Positions 45,577 to 51,977 of a stretch of 64,000 nt of DNA are shown here, in pieces. Position 1 is the first letter of the stretch, and every line of letters begins with the position of its first letter. The translations under genes were made by a program, and so were the position numbers. The stretch covers positions 467,338 to 531,337 of the forward strand of contig JBAZXR010000001.1 in the NCBI GenBank assembly GCA_041659765.1, in the 5' to 3' direction. The notes below the pieces were generated by a model, which saw only the letters and a list, made by a program, of their open reading frames with translations, did not search any database and was not told the origin of the DNA. Origin of the DNA: Patescibacteria group bacterium. Its GTDB lineage: Bacteria > Patescibacteriota > Patescibacteriia > UBA9934.

Positions 45577-45927
45577 ATGAGCCATCGCCAATTGGTTCGG
45601 ACCGCGTCACGGAGACTGGTTCACAATTTCATTTGGCATCATCTCAAAAATACGCCCTGCGAAGAGGGTCGAAAAGTTGAGATCCCGTCCATCTCGGCCT
45701 TTGACCATGCGTTCATGGTCTACTGGAACGCGATAGAACAGCGGCACAAGCAAACGTGCAAACCCTGTAAAGAAATACAGGCCTGTTTCTTTGGCGATAC
45801 GATCCAGAAACTGCGGCCAGATCCCGTCACCGGAGTATCCGTTTACTTCCACGAATATCTCCTCGCCAACGGCCAGTTCGACCTCGTCACCGGCCACGGC
45901 ACGGTTCTCCTCGAAGCCCTGCGTTGA
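45577..45927 (+). CDS. Possible hypothetical protein (116 aa); coding strand ambiguous
   Basis: GGGAGGtttcATG, the same SD style as the GC-rich island genes; the overlapping minus ORF 45607..45897 (GTG start after AGGAGA) is an equally long alternative. Confidence 0.3.
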   Translation: MSHRQLVRTASRRLVHNFIWHHLKNTPCEEGRKVEIPSISAFDHAFMVYWNAIEQRHKQTCKPCKEIQACFFGDTIQKLRPDPVTGVSVYFHEYLLANGQFDLVTGHGTVLLEALR

Positions 45928-45988
45928 AAGACGTGGGGCTATTCTTTTCTCGGCAAAAAGAAAATCCCCGATTTCTCGGAGATGTTCT

Positions 45989-46063
45989 TGGTGCGCCGGG
46001 TGGGGATCGAACCCACGACCATAGGCTTAAAAGGCCTGTGCTCTACCACTGAGCTACCAGCGC
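45989..46063 (-). tRNA. tRNA-Lys (anticodon TTT), CCA encoded
   Basis: rc: GCGCTGG TA GCTCAGTGGTAGAGC A CAGGC CTTTTAA GCCTA TGGTC GTGGG TTCGATC CCCAC CCGGCGC A CCA. Confidence 0.85.
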
Positions 46064-46129
46064 ATAGCTTGTAACGGCGGGAATCGTACACGAAAATCCC
46101 CTATTTGGCAACTACGCAATCATGCAGGG

Positions 46130-46158
46130 ATTGCGGATTATCTCGTAATCTGCTATCA
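46130..46158 (+). promoter_or_regulatory. Promoter TTGCGG-N17-TATCAT for ORF 46187
   Basis: ttgcggattatctcgtaatctgctatcat. Confidence 0.45.
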
Positions 46159-46186
46159 TTATCCGTTCCTTTCACGGAGGTGACTC

Positions 46187-46726
46187 TTGGCAAAAGTGTT
46201 GTTCATTCCGAGTTGCGAAGTGGCGGCCATCGACACCCTCGAGGGCACGGAGACGGAAATCCGCTTGAAAGCGGGGCTCGAAGAGTGGAAAAAGGGAGCG
46301 TTCGACGTCATCGCCGTGGCTGGCGGGGTGTACCTACCGCCGGAGCTGCAGACGCGACCGTCGGGAACCCTCATGAAGGAGTGGCTCCTCACGCGCGGAC
46401 TCACGGAGCACCAGGTGGTGGCCGAGACGAACTCTCGGGACACGTACGAGAACATCTCCGGCGTGGTCTCTGCACTCTGGGGACGGCCGATCGAACGAAT
46501 CGCCGTCATCACGCAGTGGCAGCACGCGTTGCGGTTCTGGGTGACCTTCCGACGCGCCCACGGCGTGAAGGCGGAGATCATCCCGTTGTGGTACTCCCCC
46601 GGGCTGAGTCGGTTCCTCAAAGAGTGGCTGTTCCTGCTCATTCACGTGTTCGATGCCACAGGAACAAGTCCGCTCGTCATGAAGAACAAACAGAACTGCA
46701 CGTTCCCCAAGCCGGCGACCAGCTGA
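46187..46726 (+). CDS. DUF218 / YdcF-like (SanA-like) domain protein, TTG start, GC3-rich
   Basis: AVAGGVYLPP...TNSRDTYENI pattern of the DUF218 family; GGAGGTgactcTTG. Confidence 0.55.
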   Translation: MAKVLFIPSCEVAAIDTLEGTETEIRLKAGLEEWKKGAFDVIAVAGGVYLPPELQTRPSGTLMKEWLLTRGLTEHQVVAETNSRDTYENISGVVSALWGRPIERIAVITQWQHALRFWVTFRRAHGVKAEIIPLWYSPGLSRFLKEWLFLLIHVFDATGTSPLVMKNKQNCTFPKPATS

Positions 46727-46745
46727 CAGGAACATCTCGCGACAA

Positions 46746-46773
46746 CCCCGCACCAAGTGCGGGGTATTTTTTT
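46746..46773 (+). terminator. Intrinsic terminator ccccgcac-caag-tgcgggg + tattttttt
   Basis: Perfect 7-8 bp GC stem, T7; near-identical to the terminator at 48037. Confidence 0.75.
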
Positions 46774-46800
46774 GACAAAACACCTCTTTTTTGCTAATAT
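46772..46800 (+). promoter_or_regulatory. Consensus sigma70 promoter TTGACA-N17-TAATAT
   Basis: ttgacaaaacacctcttttttgctaatat; the -35 overlaps the T-run of the upstream terminator. Confidence 0.6.
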
Positions 46801-47012
46801 TTCTGGTCGATTCTCCTTTCAATGTAGAGGAGTTCGATCACCTTTAGGGAATAATAATCCCAATGTGGATTTTATTTCTGAGTGGCAGACTTCTCAAGGG
46901 AATGTCTACAGACCTGGGTACGGAGGCAAAAAAAACGCTCGCAGCCGGAAACGGTAGCGAGCCACGTCGTTCACGAACGACGTAGCGGGTCAACCCAAGT
47001 TCGGAGAGTTTC
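46801..47012 (+). ncRNA. Long structured 5' leader (~205 nt) upstream of ORF 47013: candidate cis-regulatory RNA / riboswitch of unknown class
   Basis: Successive hairpins: tcgattctcct..aggagttcga; aatcc-caatgt-ggatt; agac..gtct; gcaaaaaaaacgctcgc-agccggaaacggta-gcgagc; perfect cgtcgtt-cacg-aacgacg; ends with GGAGagtttcATG. Confidence 0.4.
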
Positions 47013-47435
47013 ATGGGCAAGCAAGTCATCATCCGGCGTCGCGGAACCGCGGCCTACGAGAGGGCGGTCGGTGTGTACGTGCAAGAAGGACAAGTGTTCG
47101 GCGACACCAAGTACATCGACCCGCAGGCAGAAATATTAAAAGCCACTGGCAGGCTCCTCGATCGGGGCATGTGCATCCTGGACTTTGCGAGCGGCATCAA
47201 GGCGTCAGGCTGCGTGGTCTGGATCGACGAACGGCGAAAGGGCCGTCTCTACTCGTTCAAGGCGTTCATTGACTACTCCCCAACCGGCTTTTACTCGGAC
47301 TACTACATGTTCGGACTGCTGTGGGGACGAGGTCAATGGAACCTCCTTAAGGACGGTTTCGCCCGCGACGTACCGCTCCGCGATCAGACCTACACATTGG
47401 GGACGCTCGTGGACGCTGGCATCATCCGCGTGTGA
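47013..47435 (+). CDS. Hypothetical protein (140 aa, GC3-rich)
   Basis: MGKQVIIRRRGTAAYERAVGVYVQEGQVFGDTKYIDPQAEIL...; no recognised motif. Confidence 0.5.
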   Translation: MGKQVIIRRRGTAAYERAVGVYVQEGQVFGDTKYIDPQAEILKATGRLLDRGMCILDFASGIKASGCVVWIDERRKGRLYSFKAFIDYSPTGFYSDYYMFGLLWGRGQWNLLKDGFARDVPLRDQTYTLGTLVDAGIIRV

Positions 47436-47447
47436 CAACTCGAACAT

Positions 47448-47482
47448 CCCGATCGGACATCCGGTCGGGACTTTACTTTCTT
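47448..47482 (+). terminator. Intrinsic terminator cccgatcgg-acat-ccggtcggg + actttactttctt
   Basis: 9-bp stem with one mismatch, T-rich tail; the -35 (tttact) of the next promoter lies within the tail. Confidence 0.5.
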
Positions 47483-47524
47483 ACCACATTTTGCTATCGT
47501 TCTCTGTTCCTTCATGGAGGTTAC

Positions 47525-48016
47525 ATGCCAGATGTTTTGCCATTCACTCAGAATCGCGCACGAAGGTTGATCGTTCCCGATACAAGGTCGAGCGAATGCA
47601 TCGCCCTGCCTCCACCGACCCACTCGAGTCCCCCAGAAGAGAGGAAGATCGCTTACCGTACGTCCGAAACGATGCGTCTGCAGATCCTCCGGGATCACAA
47701 GTTCGTGGAAGACGTTCAGGCCTTGCTCACCGGCGAACGGTGGCTTCTCGAGCCAACGTCAACCGCTATCTTCAACCACCATCACAAGTACCAGATCGAT
47801 GCCAAACCACAACGACAGTCGTGGCGAAAACGTGGTGACATGAAGTCGAGCGATGCGGGGCGTTACTGTGTGGGTTGCCGGTGGCAAGTAGCGGATCATC
47901 TGGCTCCCCATCTGCTTGCTATCGTTCCCTCCATCTCCCGCAAGCGAGCCGAGGCGTTCATCAACCACGGCCACACGATCGTTGAGCGACGGGGCCAATA
48001 CTCAACTCGCCGCTAA
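47525..48016 (+). CDS. Hypothetical His/Cys-rich protein (163 aa, GC3-rich)
   Basis: Start at MPDVLPFTQNRARRL with GGAGGttacATG; the leader tgctatcgttctctgttccttcatggaggttac is about 80% identical to the leader of ORF 46187. Confidence 0.5.
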   Translation: MPDVLPFTQNRARRLIVPDTRSSECIALPPPTHSSPPEERKIAYRTSETMRLQILRDHKFVEDVQALLTGERWLLEPTSTAIFNHHHKYQIDAKPQRQSWRKRGDMKSSDAGRYCVGCRWQVADHLAPHLLAIVPSISRKRAEAFINHGHTIVERRGQYSTRR

Positions 48017-48036
48017 AACCATCAGTTCCCGTCAGG

Positions 48037-48065
48037 CCCTGCACCACGTGCGGGGTTCTTTTTTT
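48037..48065. terminator. Intrinsic terminator ccctgcac-cacg-tgcgggg + ttcttttttt (sequence-related to 46746 terminator)
   Basis: Overlaps the stop codon (48064) of the convergent minus-strand gene. Confidence 0.7.
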
Positions 48066-48756
48066 AGTACCTTCCGCACTGAACTTCGTTGCCGTTGGAA
48101 ATTATTTCGGCAAAGGGACCCGTCGATAAACTGATGCGGAAGAAACGGCTTGAAAGTTTAAAATCTATGCCAGTCGGTGTGTCTGTCCAGTAGGTCACGA
48201 TCCTGCCCGTGCGGGCGTCTACAATGGCGAAGCCTTCATGTTTCTGAGCGTCGTCAGACGGCATGCCCCAGCGAGACACCACGTAAGCGCCGGCGAAGTT
48301 TACCCCGCGAGCGACGTCTTTGGTGATGGCGGTGCGATACCTTGCGGCGTCAGGCCATGTCGAGAAATCCGGCCGGTGCGGGCGGCCTTTGTAGAATTCT
48401 GTGGCGGGATAGTCAGCAAACTCGCCTTGCACGCCGTAGCCGCACTCGGGAGCGGGATCGGTGGCGGGAGCAGTCGAGTAGTCGGAGGGAGTGACGAGAG
48501 GAACGGGAGAGGGCGTAGGTGGGCGTGTGTCTTGTGTCTCAAAAACAACGAGTTTGCCACCGGGAAAGACGCAAGTAGGTTTTTGAGCATTCCATAGCCA
48601 CTCCCCGCCCTGCTCTTCGCAGGATGACCGATAGGAGGCCGAGGTTGGTTCGCCGCCGGTGAAAAATTTAAAAAGAAGAACGAAAGCAATGAGGCCGAAA
48701 AAGACGGTCGGCGACAAAAGTTTAACCCAATGTTTGTCCGGCATTTCCCAGGTCAT
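48064..48756 (-). CDS. Hypothetical membrane-anchored protein (GC-rich)
   Basis: TM VFFGLIAFVLLFKFF, Pro/Thr-rich linker, Cys pairs; likely start MPDKHWVKLL. Confidence 0.5.
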   Translation of the reverse strand: MTWEMPDKHWVKLLSPTVFFGLIAFVLLFKFFTGGEPTSASYRSSCEEQGGEWLWNAQKPTCVFPGGKLVVFETQDTRPPTPSPVPLVTPSDYSTAPATDPAPECGYGVQGEFADYPATEFYKGRPHRPDFSTWPDAARYRTAITKDVARGVNFAGAYVVSRWGMPSDDAQKHEGFAIVDARTGRIVTYWTDTPTGIDFKLSSRFFRISLSTGPFAEIISNGNEVQCGRY

Positions 48757-49816
48757 GGATACACTCTACCGCCGACACAAGTTTTTCGTCGAGTTCAAAC
48801 GCGAACAACTTTCCTGCAGCTTCCGACAGATCCGCTCGCTTCAGGTCATCGTGCGAAAGTTTTTGGATTACTTGAAGAAGGTTTTGCGGAGTTGCGCCTG
48901 GAGACAAGACGAAACAGGCGCCGCGAGATTCGACAGCCTGCGCGTTTTGTTCTTGATGCGAACCAGCGATTGGAATCAAGATGGTCGGTTTCTTGAGTGC
49001 AGCTACTTCCATGATGGTTCCCATGCCCGCACGGGCGACGACGACATCCGCAAGTGCATACGCATCAGCCAGCGACTCGCCCAAAAACTCAACGGCTTTA
49101 TAACCGTCGCCGATCTTTTCCAGAGCTGGCAGCATCTTGCCCTTCCCCGTTAAGTGAATAACATTCGCGGATTTCACGAGCTCAGGACCAATGGTCACAA
49201 ACATGTCGTTCATGCTAGCCGCGCCAGTACCGCCGCCAATAATAAGGACTGTTGGCAATGGCCGATGAAGCCCAAATCTTTCGCGAGCCAGATGCGCTTC
49301 GCCGAGCAACATGGACTTCCTAACGGACCCACCAGCCACCTCGGTCTTCCCTTTTGGAAAGACTGAAAGATTTTCTGGCCAAGTGACGAAAATCTTTTTC
49401 GCAATTTTTGCCATCAGTTTGTTGGCAATGCCCGGCGTCACATCAAGCTGCTCGATTACCACGGGGATTCCAAGAACCTTCGCCATGAATGCGACAGGCA
49501 CACTCACGTAGGCGCCCGCGCTTACAACAGTCAACGGCTCGATATCCTGGAGCATCGAGTATGCCTTGATCGAACTCACAATAAATTGCGGAATAATAAA
49601 CGGCAGCGTCCAAAGTCTAGTACGGTCCAACTTGGGCGCCGAGAGCACTCTAAACTCGTAGCCGTCACGCTCGACCAGTTCTCGCTCGGGTCCCTCCGGC
49701 GTACCGATCCAAACAATTTTCACCTCCGGATTTCTGTCACGCAAAAGCCGCGCCGCTGACAAAAGCGGAGTGACCGGACCAAGCGTACCTCCACCGGTGA
49801 ATAAAACGGTTTTCAT
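48722..49816 (-). CDS. murG: UDP-N-acetylglucosamine--N-acetylmuramyl-(pentapeptide) pyrophosphoryl-undecaprenol GlcNAc transferase
   Basis: Start at MKTVLFTGGGTLGPVTPLLS; GT28 N- and C-domains (HQEQNA). Confidence 0.85.
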   Translation of the reverse strand: MKTVLFTGGGTLGPVTPLLSAARLLRDRNPEVKIVWIGTPEGPERELVERDGYEFRVLSAPKLDRTRLWTLPFIIPQFIVSSIKAYSMLQDIEPLTVVSAGAYVSVPVAFMAKVLGIPVVIEQLDVTPGIANKLMAKIAKKIFVTWPENLSVFPKGKTEVAGGSVRKSMLLGEAHLARERFGLHRPLPTVLIIGGGTGAASMNDMFVTIGPELVKSANVIHLTGKGKMLPALEKIGDGYKAVEFLGESLADAYALADVVVARAGMGTIMEVAALKKPTILIPIAGSHQEQNAQAVESRGACFVLSPGATPQNLLQVIQKLSHDDLKRADLSEAAGKLFAFELDEKLVSAVECIHDLGNAGQTLG

Positions 49817-50904
49817 ACCTCTTTCATCTCCTTCGAAATATTCAGGAGTATCCCCGCTGCCGTTAAGCATACCGCAAGTGACGTTCCGCCGTAGCTGACA
49901 AACGGGAGCGGTACACCGGTGATGGGCAGAACGCCAACCATGGCGCCAATATTCACGAACGCTTGAATACCGATCCAGGCCACAATCCCGACAGCGAGGT
50001 ATCGGCCAAAAGCATCAGGCGCCTTATCAGCGATCGTCAGGCCTCGCCAAAGAAAGGCGACGTAGAGGACCAGAAAAGCCAAGATAAGAATAAAGCCCAG
50101 TTCCTCACCGGCCACGGCAAAAATGCTGTCGCCTTCTACTTCTGGCAAATACTGAAACTTCTGCACACTATGCCCGTAGCCTCGGCCAAAGATTCCACCG
50201 GAACCAATGGCGAGCAAGGCTTGGTTAATATGATAGCCAACCCCCTGCGGGTCGAGCTCTGGATGCAGGAAGGTCATGAACCGGGCGGCTCGATAGGGTG
50301 AAAACCTTATCAAAAGCCAAAATAAACCGGCGCCAAGTCCGCCAAAGATAAAAAAATATCTGAGCGGCGCCCCCGCCACAAAATAAACGGCCAGCGACAT
50401 CGCAACAATAATGGCCATTGATCCGGTATCGGGCTCGAGAATTAAGAGGCCCATCACAATGCCAAGGATGGTCATGAACGGAATCAGTCCGGTATTTATG
50501 TTGTGCAAATCGTCCTTTGATCGTTTCTCCATCCATGCCGCAAGGTAGATCAAGAAAGTAAGTTTAACGATCTCAGACGGCTGAATGGAAAAACTGCCAA
50601 GTGTAATCCAACTCTTAGATGAACCAAAGTCAGCCTGCAATCCGGGAACGAACACCAAGACAAGAAGACCAATCGAAACGAGCAACATGAGAAACGCATA
50701 ATCTCGGTAAAACGAGTACGGAATCCGGGAAGCGATAACAGCGCCAATGACACCCGGAATGAGACCGAAGATCACCTGGTGCTTCAAAAAATAGTAGCCG
50801 TCGTGAAACTTATCAAAGCCAAGCGGCCAGGACGCAGATGCCAACATCGCCAGGCCGAAGAGCACGAGACCGGAAAGCAGGACCAAGAGTGTTCGGTCCG
50901 ACAT
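49813..50904 (-). CDS. ftsW: SEDS-family peptidoglycan glycosyltransferase FtsW/RodA
   Basis: 10 TM helices, SEDS motifs; sits between mraY and murG. Confidence 0.85.
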   Translation of the reverse strand: MSDRTLLVLLSGLVLFGLAMLASASWPLGFDKFHDGYYFLKHQVIFGLIPGVIGAVIASRIPYSFYRDYAFLMLLVSIGLLVLVFVPGLQADFGSSKSWITLGSFSIQPSEIVKLTFLIYLAAWMEKRSKDDLHNINTGLIPFMTILGIVMGLLILEPDTGSMAIIVAMSLAVYFVAGAPLRYFFIFGGLGAGLFWLLIRFSPYRAARFMTFLHPELDPQGVGYHINQALLAIGSGGIFGRGYGHSVQKFQYLPEVEGDSIFAVAGEELGFILILAFLVLYVAFLWRGLTIADKAPDAFGRYLAVGIVAWIGIQAFVNIGAMVGVLPITGVPLPFVSYGGTSLAVCLTAAGILLNISKEMKEV

Positions 50905-50906
50905 AG

Positions 50907-51977
50907 CTAAGAAAAGAAACTTGGATCAAGAAGGGCAAGGATCAGGCCAATTCCGGCGCCGATCCACGAAATTACCCAAAAGCGCATGACCACTTTTGGC
51001 TCTGGCCAGCCCTTGGCCTCAAAGTGATGATGAATAGGCGCGATCAAAAATACTTTCTTCTGCAAAAGTTTCATTTTGACGAGTTTCTTCGAGGCGATCT
51101 GAATCAAGGTGGTGAGCGCTTCGACTACAAACACGATACCGATGATCGGCAAAAGGGCTACCGTGTTTGTCAGCATCGCCACCACTCCGAGCGTGACCCC
51201 AAGACTCATTGCCCCTGTATCCCCCATAATAAAACGCGCCGGATAGATGTTGAACCAGAGGAAGGCAAGCGTCGCGCCAACAATGACTCCGCACAGGGCG
51301 GCCAGTTCAAATTTACCCTCGAGCAAAGCAATAATGGCGTAGGCGGCAAAGGCCGAGGCGAGCGTTCCACCAGCCAGTCCGTCAAGCCCATCAGTCTGAT
51401 TAACGGAGAACGAAGTAGCGACAATGACGAGGATAAAAAGGAGAATGTACCAAGGTCCAATGGAAATATCGCCGGCAAAAGGAATGTGGAGCGCGTCAAA
51501 ACCAAGTTTAAAATAAAACCACCACGCGCCGATAGCCGCAATAATAGTGTAGAGGACTATTCGCTCGCGGAAACGAATTCCGCCACCGTCAGGACCGATC
51601 TTCAAGATATTAAATAGGTCGTCGACTATACCCACCAAACCAGCGGCCACGAGCACGGCGAGCGGGAGCCAAGTCTGTGAGCGCGTCAGAAAACTTAACG
51701 GAGCAAGAGGGCTGCTGGGAAATAACCCGGCGATCAAGGCAAAAAATAAGGCCAAAAACAGCGCCGTACCCCACATGAGAGTTCCGCCCATAGTGGGCAC
51801 GCCAGCTTTCTTTTTGTGCAGCTCCGCAAACATGGGCGCCTTCACCGCGCTCCGAATACTTTTGCCTAAGCGGTACTTATACAAAAAGTGCGTTAAAGCC
51901 GGCGTCCAGGCTATAGCCACGACAAAAGCTAAAGTAGAGAGGAGGAGTATTTTGCCAATCGCGAAGGGATCAACCAT
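50907..51977 (-). CDS. mraY: Phospho-N-acetylmuramoyl-pentapeptide transferase
   Basis: GTLMWG, VDDLFNILK, DGLDGLAGG, HHHFE motifs. Confidence 0.9.
   Translation of the reverse strand: MVDPFAIGKILLLSTLAFVVAIAWTPALTHFLYKYRLGKSIRSAVKAPMFAELHKKKAGVPTMGGTLMWGTALFLALFFALIAGLFPSSPLAPLSFLTRSQTWLPLAVLVAAGLVGIVDDLFNILKIGPDGGGIRFRERIVLYTIIAAIGAWWFYFKLGFDALHIPFAGDISIGPWYILLFILVIVATSFSVNQTDGLDGLAGGTLASAFAAYAIIALLEGKFELAALCGVIVGATLAFLWFNIYPARFIMGDTGAMSLGVTLGVVAMLTNTVALLPIIGIVFVVEALTTLIQIASKKLVKMKLLQKKVFLIAPIHHHFEAKGWPEPKVVMRFWVISWIGAGIGLILALLDPSFFS

Follow-up and report, generated by a model that had tools for sequence, protein, structure and literature searches.

Why should two unrelated genes, separated by a third, be framed by nearly the same leader and nearly the same terminator? 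The question is raised by a block of three forward-strand open reading frames (ORFs) in a 64-kb stretch of contig JBAZXR010000001.1 from a Patescibacteria group bacterium. The whole stretch is referred to as the window, and coordinates count from its first letter. The block is wedged between a minus-strand tRNA-Lys(UUU) gene and the reverse-strand gene g230, followed by murG and ftsW, in a cell-division/cell-wall (dcw) cluster. A preliminary description attributed the repeated signals either to modular cassette exchange or to a family of co-regulated accessory genes. Comparison with related loci shifts this view from one shell with swapped payloads towards an islet that recombination has probably shuffled and whose joints are repeated. 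On balance, the probable explanation is that the three genes are moron-like modules, each autonomous and monocistronic, at a chromosomal hotspot, which were inserted, lost and permuted at joints of stop codon, terminator and promoter; the similar terminators of the first and third genes would be a duplicated joint, and their leader a common module. The elements of the block are as follows.

46131..46186, + strand: leader L1, with a -35-like TTGCGG (46131-46136), an extended -10 TGCTATCAT (46151-46159), a short 5' untranslated region (5'UTR) with GTTCCTTT, and the Shine–Dalgarno (SD) sequence GGAGGTGA (46176-46183)
46187..46726, + strand: ORF1, a DUF218 (YdcF-like) protein of 179 amino acids (aa), with a TTG start
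46745..46773, + strand: terminator T1 (type A), a hairpin (46745-46765) with a T-run that enters the -35 element of the ORF2 promoter; left copy of the direct repeat
46772..47012, + strand: promoter and leader of ORF2, with TTGACA (46772-46777), a 17-nucleotide (nt) spacer and TAATAT (46795-46800) as located by a promoter scan; leader 46801-47012
47013..47435, + strand: ORF2, 140 aa, of a family restricted to this lineage
47447..47480, + strand: terminator T2 (type B), a hairpin (47447-47470) with a T-rich tail, from a terminator scan
47472..47524, + strand: leader L3, with a -35-like TTTACT (47472-47477), an extended -10 TGCTATCGT (47492-47500), GTTCCTT, and the SD sequence GGAGG (47516-47520)
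47525..48016, + strand: ORF3, 163 aa, the short form of a small family
48035..48066, + strand: terminator T3 (type A), a hairpin (48035-48057) with a T-run abutting the g230 stop codon; right copy of the direct repeat

Expression signals of the first and third genes

The strings on which the preliminary description relied are present in the window where it had placed them, and the likeness between them is borne out. From the extended -10 (TGCTATCAT in L1, TGCTATCGT in L3) via GGAGG to the start codon, the two leaders match at 30 of 39 positions when indels are allowed, and the ungapped segments 46151-46171 and 47492-47512 match at 18 of 21. The terminators are near-identical as well, with 24/28 matches between 46746-46773 and 48037-48064. 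At up to three mismatches, the leader motif occurs at just two sites in 64 kb, and so does the terminator motif; shuffled sequences would be expected to yield 0.01 and 0.00 sites, respectively. Local alignment of the two 5' regions gave a score of 37, compared to 16 ± 2 for shuffles and 13.4 ± 2.5 (maximum 20) for the 5' regions of 64 other genes in the window. The similarity sits in the non-coding part (score 36 against a null of 11 ± 1.8). A chimeric N-terminus was considered because the alignment ran about 35 nt into the coding sequence; the first codons alone scored 12 against 10 ± 2, which is not significant, and the idea was kept as a hint. Neither leader folds better as RNA than its shuffles. 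T1 and T3 form G+C hairpins of 9-10 bp with a U-run behind them, at -17.3 kcal/mol (z = -4.3) for T1 and -15.6 kcal/mol (z = -3.8) for T3; T2 folds with -18.4 kcal/mol, and the z values of the three terminators range from -3.8 to -5.3.

Part of this likeness could be trivial. Good promoters constrain stretches of any leader (TGnTAnnnT, GGAGGT, the start codon), all local terminators begin with CCC(C/T)G and end in GGGG plus a T-run, and the 10-mer TGCTATCRTT on its own is not enriched. Still, a generic promoter, SD and terminator style, chance, or a mis-assembly is hardly credible as the full explanation. The preliminary description had itself noted that motifs found at most genes would render the similarity unremarkable; within the available sequence they are confined to the block, as there is no third copy in 64 kb and none of the 64 other gene starts compared approaches the leader–leader score. 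When the motifs are relaxed to degenerate patterns, matches are found solely at cassette positions in 215 kb (window plus fetched loci), a result that is partly circular, the patterns being drawn from the same sequences. Orthologous joints recur in other assemblies, and the Logan assembly L001 is 100% identical to window positions 46019-51033; because L001 was assembled independently, the arrangement is not a mis-join.

The proteins behind these signals are unrelated, as had been claimed. ORF1 passes the Pfam profile PF02698 with 8e-15 and 55.4 bits (cut-off 27.6), covering profile positions 13-132 of 133, which supports its description as DUF218-like, and all 27 of its 27 homologs carry the same domain. 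Comparison of ORF1 with ORF3 gave a BLASTP E of 26 and no tblastn cross-match. A decayed DUF218 copy in the third cassette was rejected on the same grounds, as tblastn of the DUF218 protein on the window was empty there. The middle cassette differs in its signals, with the TTGACA-17-TAATAT promoter and the leader of about 210 nt that had been reported for it.

Gene content of the hotspot in related genomes

Syntenic loci were fetched via murG, the ORF2 homolog, the DUF218 homologs and the ORF3 homologs. The resulting comparison set comprises seven loci, i.e. the window and six relatives, with three short fragments among them. A MurG scan of genome contigs contributed one relative; scanning metagenomes with a g230 alignment revealed no further hotspot loci. 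Relative to the window, the flanking core genes are 82-86% (MurG), about 75% (ATPase) and 55-73% (g230) identical. The content of the slot varies as listed.

Window: DUF218, ORF2 and ORF3 between tRNA-Lys and g230
L003: none of the three genes; a gap of 113 nt
L002: ORF2 only
L008: DUF218 only
L006: ORF2, then DUF218; a 315-aa long-form relative of ORF3 lies across the tRNA
L014 (fragment): DUF218, an ORF3 homolog and an ORF2-like gene
L015 (fragment): an ORF3 homolog and an ORF2 homolog

Comparison across relatives, as the preliminary description had suggested, thus reveals none, one, two or three genes, in differing order, at the same chromosomal spot. The slot 3' of the tRNA is variable too: homologs of the small gene ORF116 are found in the window, L003 and L006, the slot is empty in L002, and L006 carries the additional 315-aa gene there.

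The comparison of the window with L008 is the decisive one. Homology in blastn begins exactly at 46151, the -10 of the leader, and runs to 46768 (L008 324-940); it resumes from 48037 to 48527 (L008 919-1405). The single terminator of L008 hence aligns to both T1 and T3, the latter match standing at the start of the g230 homology, and therefore T1 and T3 constitute a direct repeat flanking an indel. Compared to the DUF218-only locus, the window has an extra 1,291 bp that hold the ORF2 promoter, its leader, ORF2, T2, L3 and ORF3. The preferred reading takes T1/T3 as the joint duplicated in this ORF2+ORF3 indel; insertion at a type-A terminator and deletion between two type-A copies in L008 would each account for the difference, in either direction.

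A second break is seen against L014. The DUF218 gene of the window is 92% identical to that of L014 at the nucleotide level until the last few codons. Past this point, the 3'UTR, the terminator (type B rather than A) and the genes that come next either differ or have diverged strongly, and the adjacent ORF3 is merely 56% identical to its L014 homolog at the amino acid level. Identity along the locus is a mosaic with a break at the DUF218 stop codon.

Terminators and leaders behave differently in this comparison set. DUF218 ends in a terminator of type A (CCCYGCRCC..GYGCRGGGG) in the window and L008, but of type B (CCCGAYYGG..CCGGYCGGG) in L006 and L014. For ORF3 the type is A in the window, L014 and L015, and for ORF2 it is B in the window and L002. 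Three loci have type A ahead of the ORF2 promoter, and two have type B ahead of the ORF3 leader. The joint from type A to the ORF2 promoter is conserved in L015, where A ends ORF3, and the joint from type B to L3 is conserved with L014. Terminator type follows position and neighbour, not the gene it ends. Of the modular cassettes envisaged in the preliminary description, the separable modules stand, in keeping with the mosaic identity; the notion of a constant shell around a swapped payload is not borne out for the terminators, whose type goes with position.

As for the leader, DUF218 has it in the window, L008 (33/39) and L006 (27/42), and ORF3 has it in the window and L014 (27/38). The leader of the L014 ORF3 homolog is orthologous to L3, yet more diverged. 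The core TGCTA...GTTyCCTT...GGAGGT is kept in DUF218 and ORF3 leaders, and the sequence just upstream is not kept. Identities are flat whether the two window leaders (30/39), the two ORF3 leaders (27/38) or the DUF218 leaders of window and L008 (33/39) are compared, and gene conversion between L1 and L3 is neither favoured nor disfavoured. The leader is an older shared promoter/5'UTR module common to DUF218 and short ORF3 genes in several genomes.

Two routes to such sharing were weighed. In the first, promoter capture, a DUF218 cassette was duplicated, the 3' half of a long-form ORF3-family gene took the place of the coding sequence in one copy, and the resulting chimera spread. Residues 18-149 of ORF3 match only the C-terminal half of the 315-aa protein of L006, and the first ~44 residues are predicted to be disordered. 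The long-form gene of L006 has a different promoter and leader; short forms, conversely, carry the L-type leader (window, L014) and a type-A terminator (window, L014, L015). The N-termini are alike, with MAKVLF in DUF218, MADVLFF in the L014 ORF3 homolog and MPDVLPF in the window ORF3. Moreover, DUF218 fills the g230-adjacent slot, held by ORF3 in the window, in L008 with a type-A and in L006 with a type-B terminator. On the other hand, the first-codon similarity alone is not significant in the window pair, MAFFT aligns the ORF3 N-terminus equally well with residues ~14-25 of the long form, and no DUF218 coding residue remains in the third cassette. Promoter capture is a tentative proposition, with the chances lying against it; it is compatible with the module reading and does not exclude it.

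The second route is selection. The shared segment from -10 to SD may be an operator or mark a promoter class, placing DUF218 and ORF3 under one regulator, perhaps with ORF3 autoregulating, so that the leaders are kept alike. Retention of the leader core before DUF218 in three genomes and before ORF3 in two, with loss of the sequence just upstream, is consistent with this, as is the co-occurrence of DUF218, ORF2 and ORF3-family genes, in varying order, in three of the seven loci (window, L006 and L014). The structural model of ORF3 has a core of three helices and two β-strands, for which the top fold matches are winged-helix proteins such as PadR, MarR and F93. These matches are not significant, however (best E 0.08; none ≤0.001), and the leader displays neither a clear operator-type palindrome or repeat nor RNA structure. 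L008 has the leader and no ORF3 gene in the 2.3 kb available, and the similarity of the terminators and the double alignment of L008 are left unexplained. Co-regulation of the cassettes, the second proposal of the preliminary description, is accordingly possible and unlikely to be the main cause of the pattern.

DUF218 itself is not bound to this spot. Distant homologs (52-55%) occur in unrelated contexts in L009, L011 and L013; in L011 and L013 the gene is the lone forward gene amid reverse genes, and in L009 another forward gene follows. The GC content at third codon positions (GC3) of ORF1 is 0.82 compared to 0.55-0.60 in neighbouring core genes, and cassette genes show 0.62-0.83 against 0.42-0.60 in the flanking core genes of every locus. 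The difference suggests that the cassette genes come from a common foreign pool or obey a codon regime of their own.

Joints, routes of exchange and known systems

The proposed autonomous modules would work as follows. Each gene would have its own σ70-type promoter, with an extended -10 for DUF218 and ORF3, its own leader and a hairpin/U-tract terminator; the leaders would be short with a strong SD for DUF218 and ORF3, and long and structured for ORF2. Recombination would insert, delete and permute these modules, with breakpoints at the joints of stop codon, terminator and next promoter. In the case of L008, the T1/T3 direct repeat would flank the 1.29-kb ORF2+ORF3 segment absent from that locus. 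Exchange may proceed by short-homology recombination within the islet, or by replacement via the flanks after DNA uptake. A circular or tandem ORF2+ORF3 unit recombining at A would yield the window order, and at B the order of L014, as far as the fragments allow. Observed directly are the repeats and their uniqueness, the differences in cassette presence and order, the double match of the L008 terminator and the mosaic identity; that the sites act as promoters and terminators, and that exchange occurs by (short-)homology recombination, is inferred, as would be any direction assigned to an event.

Several observations weigh against this account. The relatives are about equally distant from the window by MurG and ATPase identity, and the seven loci, which include three short fragments, do not allow events to be polarised in order or direction. 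Homology at the joints spans ~20-40 nt at 77-86% identity, which is short for RecA-type recombination. Intrinsic terminators all share GGGG plus T-run ends, so repeats at breakpoints other than T1/T3 are weak evidence. Finally, the account does not explain why DUF218 and ORF3 share a leader; this would call for one more event, such as promoter capture or duplication, or for selection through co-regulation.

Among known systems, integron cassettes offer a first comparison. An integron attC site is an imperfect palindrome of ~57-141 nt with R''/L''...L'/R' boxes of the RYYYAAC...GTTRRRY type, and the cassettes are mostly promoterless. The present block resembles an integron array in that its single-gene units vary in number and order among relatives and have imperfect hairpin repeats at their boundaries. 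It differs in having no IntI, attI or attC, in terminator stems of 21-24 nt with U-tracts, and in a promoter-like site for each unit. Neither integrase nor attC site was found, in agreement with the preliminary description: the number of attC-like R''/R' pairs is 0 by regular expression on both strands of 45.5-48.8 kb (shuffles expect 0.46), and no integrase is present among the neighbour genes within ~10 kb in the window and the syntenic loci.

A site-specific variant can nonetheless be formulated, in which the terminator hairpins serve as attC-like sites for an unlinked recombinase and a circular ORF2+ORF3 unit integrates at A or B. A circle of ORF2 promoter, ORF2, B, L3, ORF3 and A entering an L008-like A would give the window order, and the same circle entering the B of an L006-like DUF218-B locus would give the L014 order, as far as the fragments carry it. 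In its favour, the repeats form hairpins and the breakpoints lie close against them. Yet the neighbourhood is free of integrase genes and of attC-type R''/R' boxes, the hairpins look like any terminator, with 9-10-bp stems and U-tracts, the cassettes carry their own promoters, which integron cassettes do not, the A copies show 4 mismatches over 28 positions, and plain deletion between direct repeats explains L008 equally well. We regard this variant as highly improbable. Very doubtful, too, is the more specific version, in which hairpins A and B, and perhaps the leader, are recombination sites for a ~1.3-kb ORF2+ORF3 circle, with the ORF3 family as a DNA-binding or recombination-directing factor and no need for an adjacent integrase. 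If the joints were real recombination sites, they would represent a new cassette-exchange mechanism; otherwise the locus is a tidy case of ordinary hotspot mosaicism.

A close structural parallel is the minimal mobile element (MME) of Neisseria, in which conserved flanks enclose different whole-gene cassettes and mobility genes are lacking (PMC3082526). The islet fits this structural definition, with fixed flanks (tRNA-Lys/ATPase and g230/murG), varied cassettes or none between them, and no mobility genes. It differs from the Neisseria case in that genus- or family-level relatives rather than strains of one species are compared, that the cassettes are permuted, and that internal terminators and leaders are repeated. 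Permuted cassettes together with repeated internal joints indicate that recombination took place within the islet too, in addition to its flanks. MME exchange is by flank recombination after natural transformation; here, such a route may at most be suggested from mosaic identity and the literature. Pili and competence genes are reported to be prevalent in Patescibacteria and have been proposed to support DNA uptake (PMC12455944).

Phage morons (PMC3594210) are similar in being single ORFs with a predicted promoter and terminator of their own, placed between conserved genes and distinct in GC3. Unlike morons, the present genes lie in a chromosomal housekeeping context and have no phage, IMG/VR, PHROG or plasmid matches in the collections searched. 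An origin in a defence system or phage was likewise rejected, as PADLOC, PHROG, tblastn against phages and plasmids, IMG/VR proteins and the DNA-motif search gave no match. With tRNA-linked islands the locus shares variable DNA directly beside a tRNA gene, on both sides. Differences are the absence of an integrase and of a direct repeat of the tRNA 3' end, the size of just ~2 kb, and the location of most variable genes on the 5' (promoter) side of the tRNA. In line with this, no 12-mer of the tRNA-Lys gene recurs elsewhere in the window.

As a hotspot or MME-like islet, the locus is a case of familiar genome plasticity in an under-studied lineage. Patescibacteria (candidate phyla radiation) have tiny, streamlined genomes in which gene gain and loss are poorly documented at base-pair resolution. 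An islet of ~2 kb in an otherwise conserved cluster, with breakpoints at terminators and promoters, is a clean, small example. Three lineage-restricted gene families and a conserved structured leader travel together here, which makes them a candidate functional trio. Given the DUF218 domain and the dcw context, the trio is possibly envelope-linked, judging by the known role of SanA/ElyC-type DUF218 proteins.

The ORF2 leader, the ORF3 family and the surroundings

ORF2 has homologs in L002 (P0003, 67%), L006 (56%), L015 (40%) and L014 (~27%). Neither ORF2 nor ORF3 has a Pfam, PADLOC or PHROG match, and the AlphaFold2 (AF2) model of ORF2 is unreliable (predicted local distance difference test, pLDDT, 49). 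The database entries named by NCBI for ORF2 and ORF3 are shorter, at 120 and 114 aa; the lengths of 140 and 163 aa used here are backed by full-length homologs (P0003, 141 aa; P0031, 162 aa) and by the SD positions.

Upstream of ORF2, ~180-210 nt of leader are conserved in five loci (the window, L002 9798-10000, L006 7251-7460, L014 960-1139 and L015 409-585). According to RNAalifold, the leader forms two hairpins whose loops resemble each other (..TCCTTTCAATGTAGAGGA.. and ..GGCTTTTCAATGnGAAAGCC..); GGGTAcGGAGGC comes after them. In L014 a stem carries a compensatory change (TCCGCTC/GAGCGGA). There is no match to an Rfam family. The leader is a candidate lineage-specific cis-regulatory RNA or protein-binding leader, and it would gain further interest if it proved to be a new regulatory RNA. 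A search of metagenomes with the hairpin pattern returned 50 matches, which were rejected as chance occurrences in coding DNA, all of them without the promoter or ORF2.

The third gene, described before as His/Cys-rich, is no lone oddity and belongs to a small family. It first appeared as an orphan, since a word-indexed search matched only the protein itself; BLASTP and HMMER then revealed relatives. In BLASTP, ORF3 aligned over residues 18-149 with the C-terminal half (168-299) of the L006 protein of 315 aa at 45% identity (E 4e-39), and an exhaustive HMMER search yielded a family of n = 8 with short and long forms. A domain of ~110 aa, with the signature QILRDHxFVEEV...HHH...QRQxW..RG.M.SSDEG.YC.GCRW, ends proteins of 270-553 aa and stands nearly alone in those of 143-163 aa. 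The start at 47525 is backed by the full-length 56% homolog of L014.

In the AF2 model, the core (residues ~45-160) is predicted with a pLDDT above 90 as a helical/β-hairpin fold (helix-helix-helix-β-β), preceded by ~44 disordered residues. Foldseek top matches in the PDB are mostly winged-helix (WH) domains (PadR, MarR, F93, the WH of the origin recognition complex, ORC), with a best E of 0.08 and TM scores of 0.2-0.37, none significant. Matches in a viral fold library are mostly uncharacterised proteins with a few annotated as helix-turn-helix (best E 0.054, none significant). A winged-helix fold with DNA binding is thus a possible lead for this domain rather than a finding.

A third copy of TTGCTATCGTTC(T/C)CT lies inside ORF3 (47916-47930), where the codons spell LLAIVPS. 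Since this peptide is encoded by other bases in the L014 homolog, the copy is probably due to chance.

Long and distant relatives of ORF3 were observed at two further places. The 315-aa long-form gene of L006 (5950-7060) has its own TTGACA promoter and lies between ORF114 and tRNA-Lys; the breakpoints of this insert fall in the tRNA terminator hairpin, with (G/A)AAAATCCCC at both ends. In L016 (522-1120), the distant short family member P0037 is immediately followed by two weak tRNA-like genes (Rfam 32 bits; none by ARAGORN), of which the second resembles Lys-UUU by eye. Small same-strand ORFs come next, in a context resembling a phage or mobile element.

The fixed and variable neighbours of the block are the following.

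45577..45940, + strand: ORF116, a small, fast-evolving gene that ends in a hairpin terminator of its own (45915-45940)
45989..46063, - strand: tRNA-Lys(UUU), identified by ARAGORN and Rfam; the fixed landmark of the hotspot
48064..48756, - strand: g230, a conserved lineage-specific membrane-anchored protein of 230 aa; the right fixed flank

ORF116 is placed across tRNA-Lys from the main block and marks the second variable slot of the hotspot. Its terminator was located by the terminator scan and folds with -18.1 kcal/mol. Homologs occupy the same position in L003 (26% aa identity) and L006 (34%), and none is found in L002. The tRNA-Lys gene, with a promoter-like site TTGCCA-17-TACGAT at 46111-46083 according to the scan, is at the same place in L002, L003, L006 and L008. 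In these four loci the g230 homologs always adjoin murG. For about 10 kb on each side the genes are of the housekeeping type, such as Mur ligases, a cation ATPase, MurG, FtsW and MraY, as taken from syntenic annotations matched to ORF sizes.

The L003 locus (CAYGEQ010000009.1) bears the title 'uncultured Gammaproteobacteria bacterium'. In gene order, and with a MurG identity of 82%, it nevertheless fits the present Patescibacteria lineage, and the label is likely wrong. A 15-nt direct repeat, GAAAATCCCC(G/T)ATTT, flanks tRNA-Lys in the window (45960-45974 and 46092-46106; spacing 132 nt); the repeat is of borderline significance, and neither L003 nor L006 conserves it. In L008, the spacer that separates tRNA-Lys from the DUF218 leader (47-300) is longer by ~130 nt, with TTCCAAAATACAG duplicated. 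The window is without this tRNA-proximal hairpin region of L008, which represents another small indel in the hotspot.

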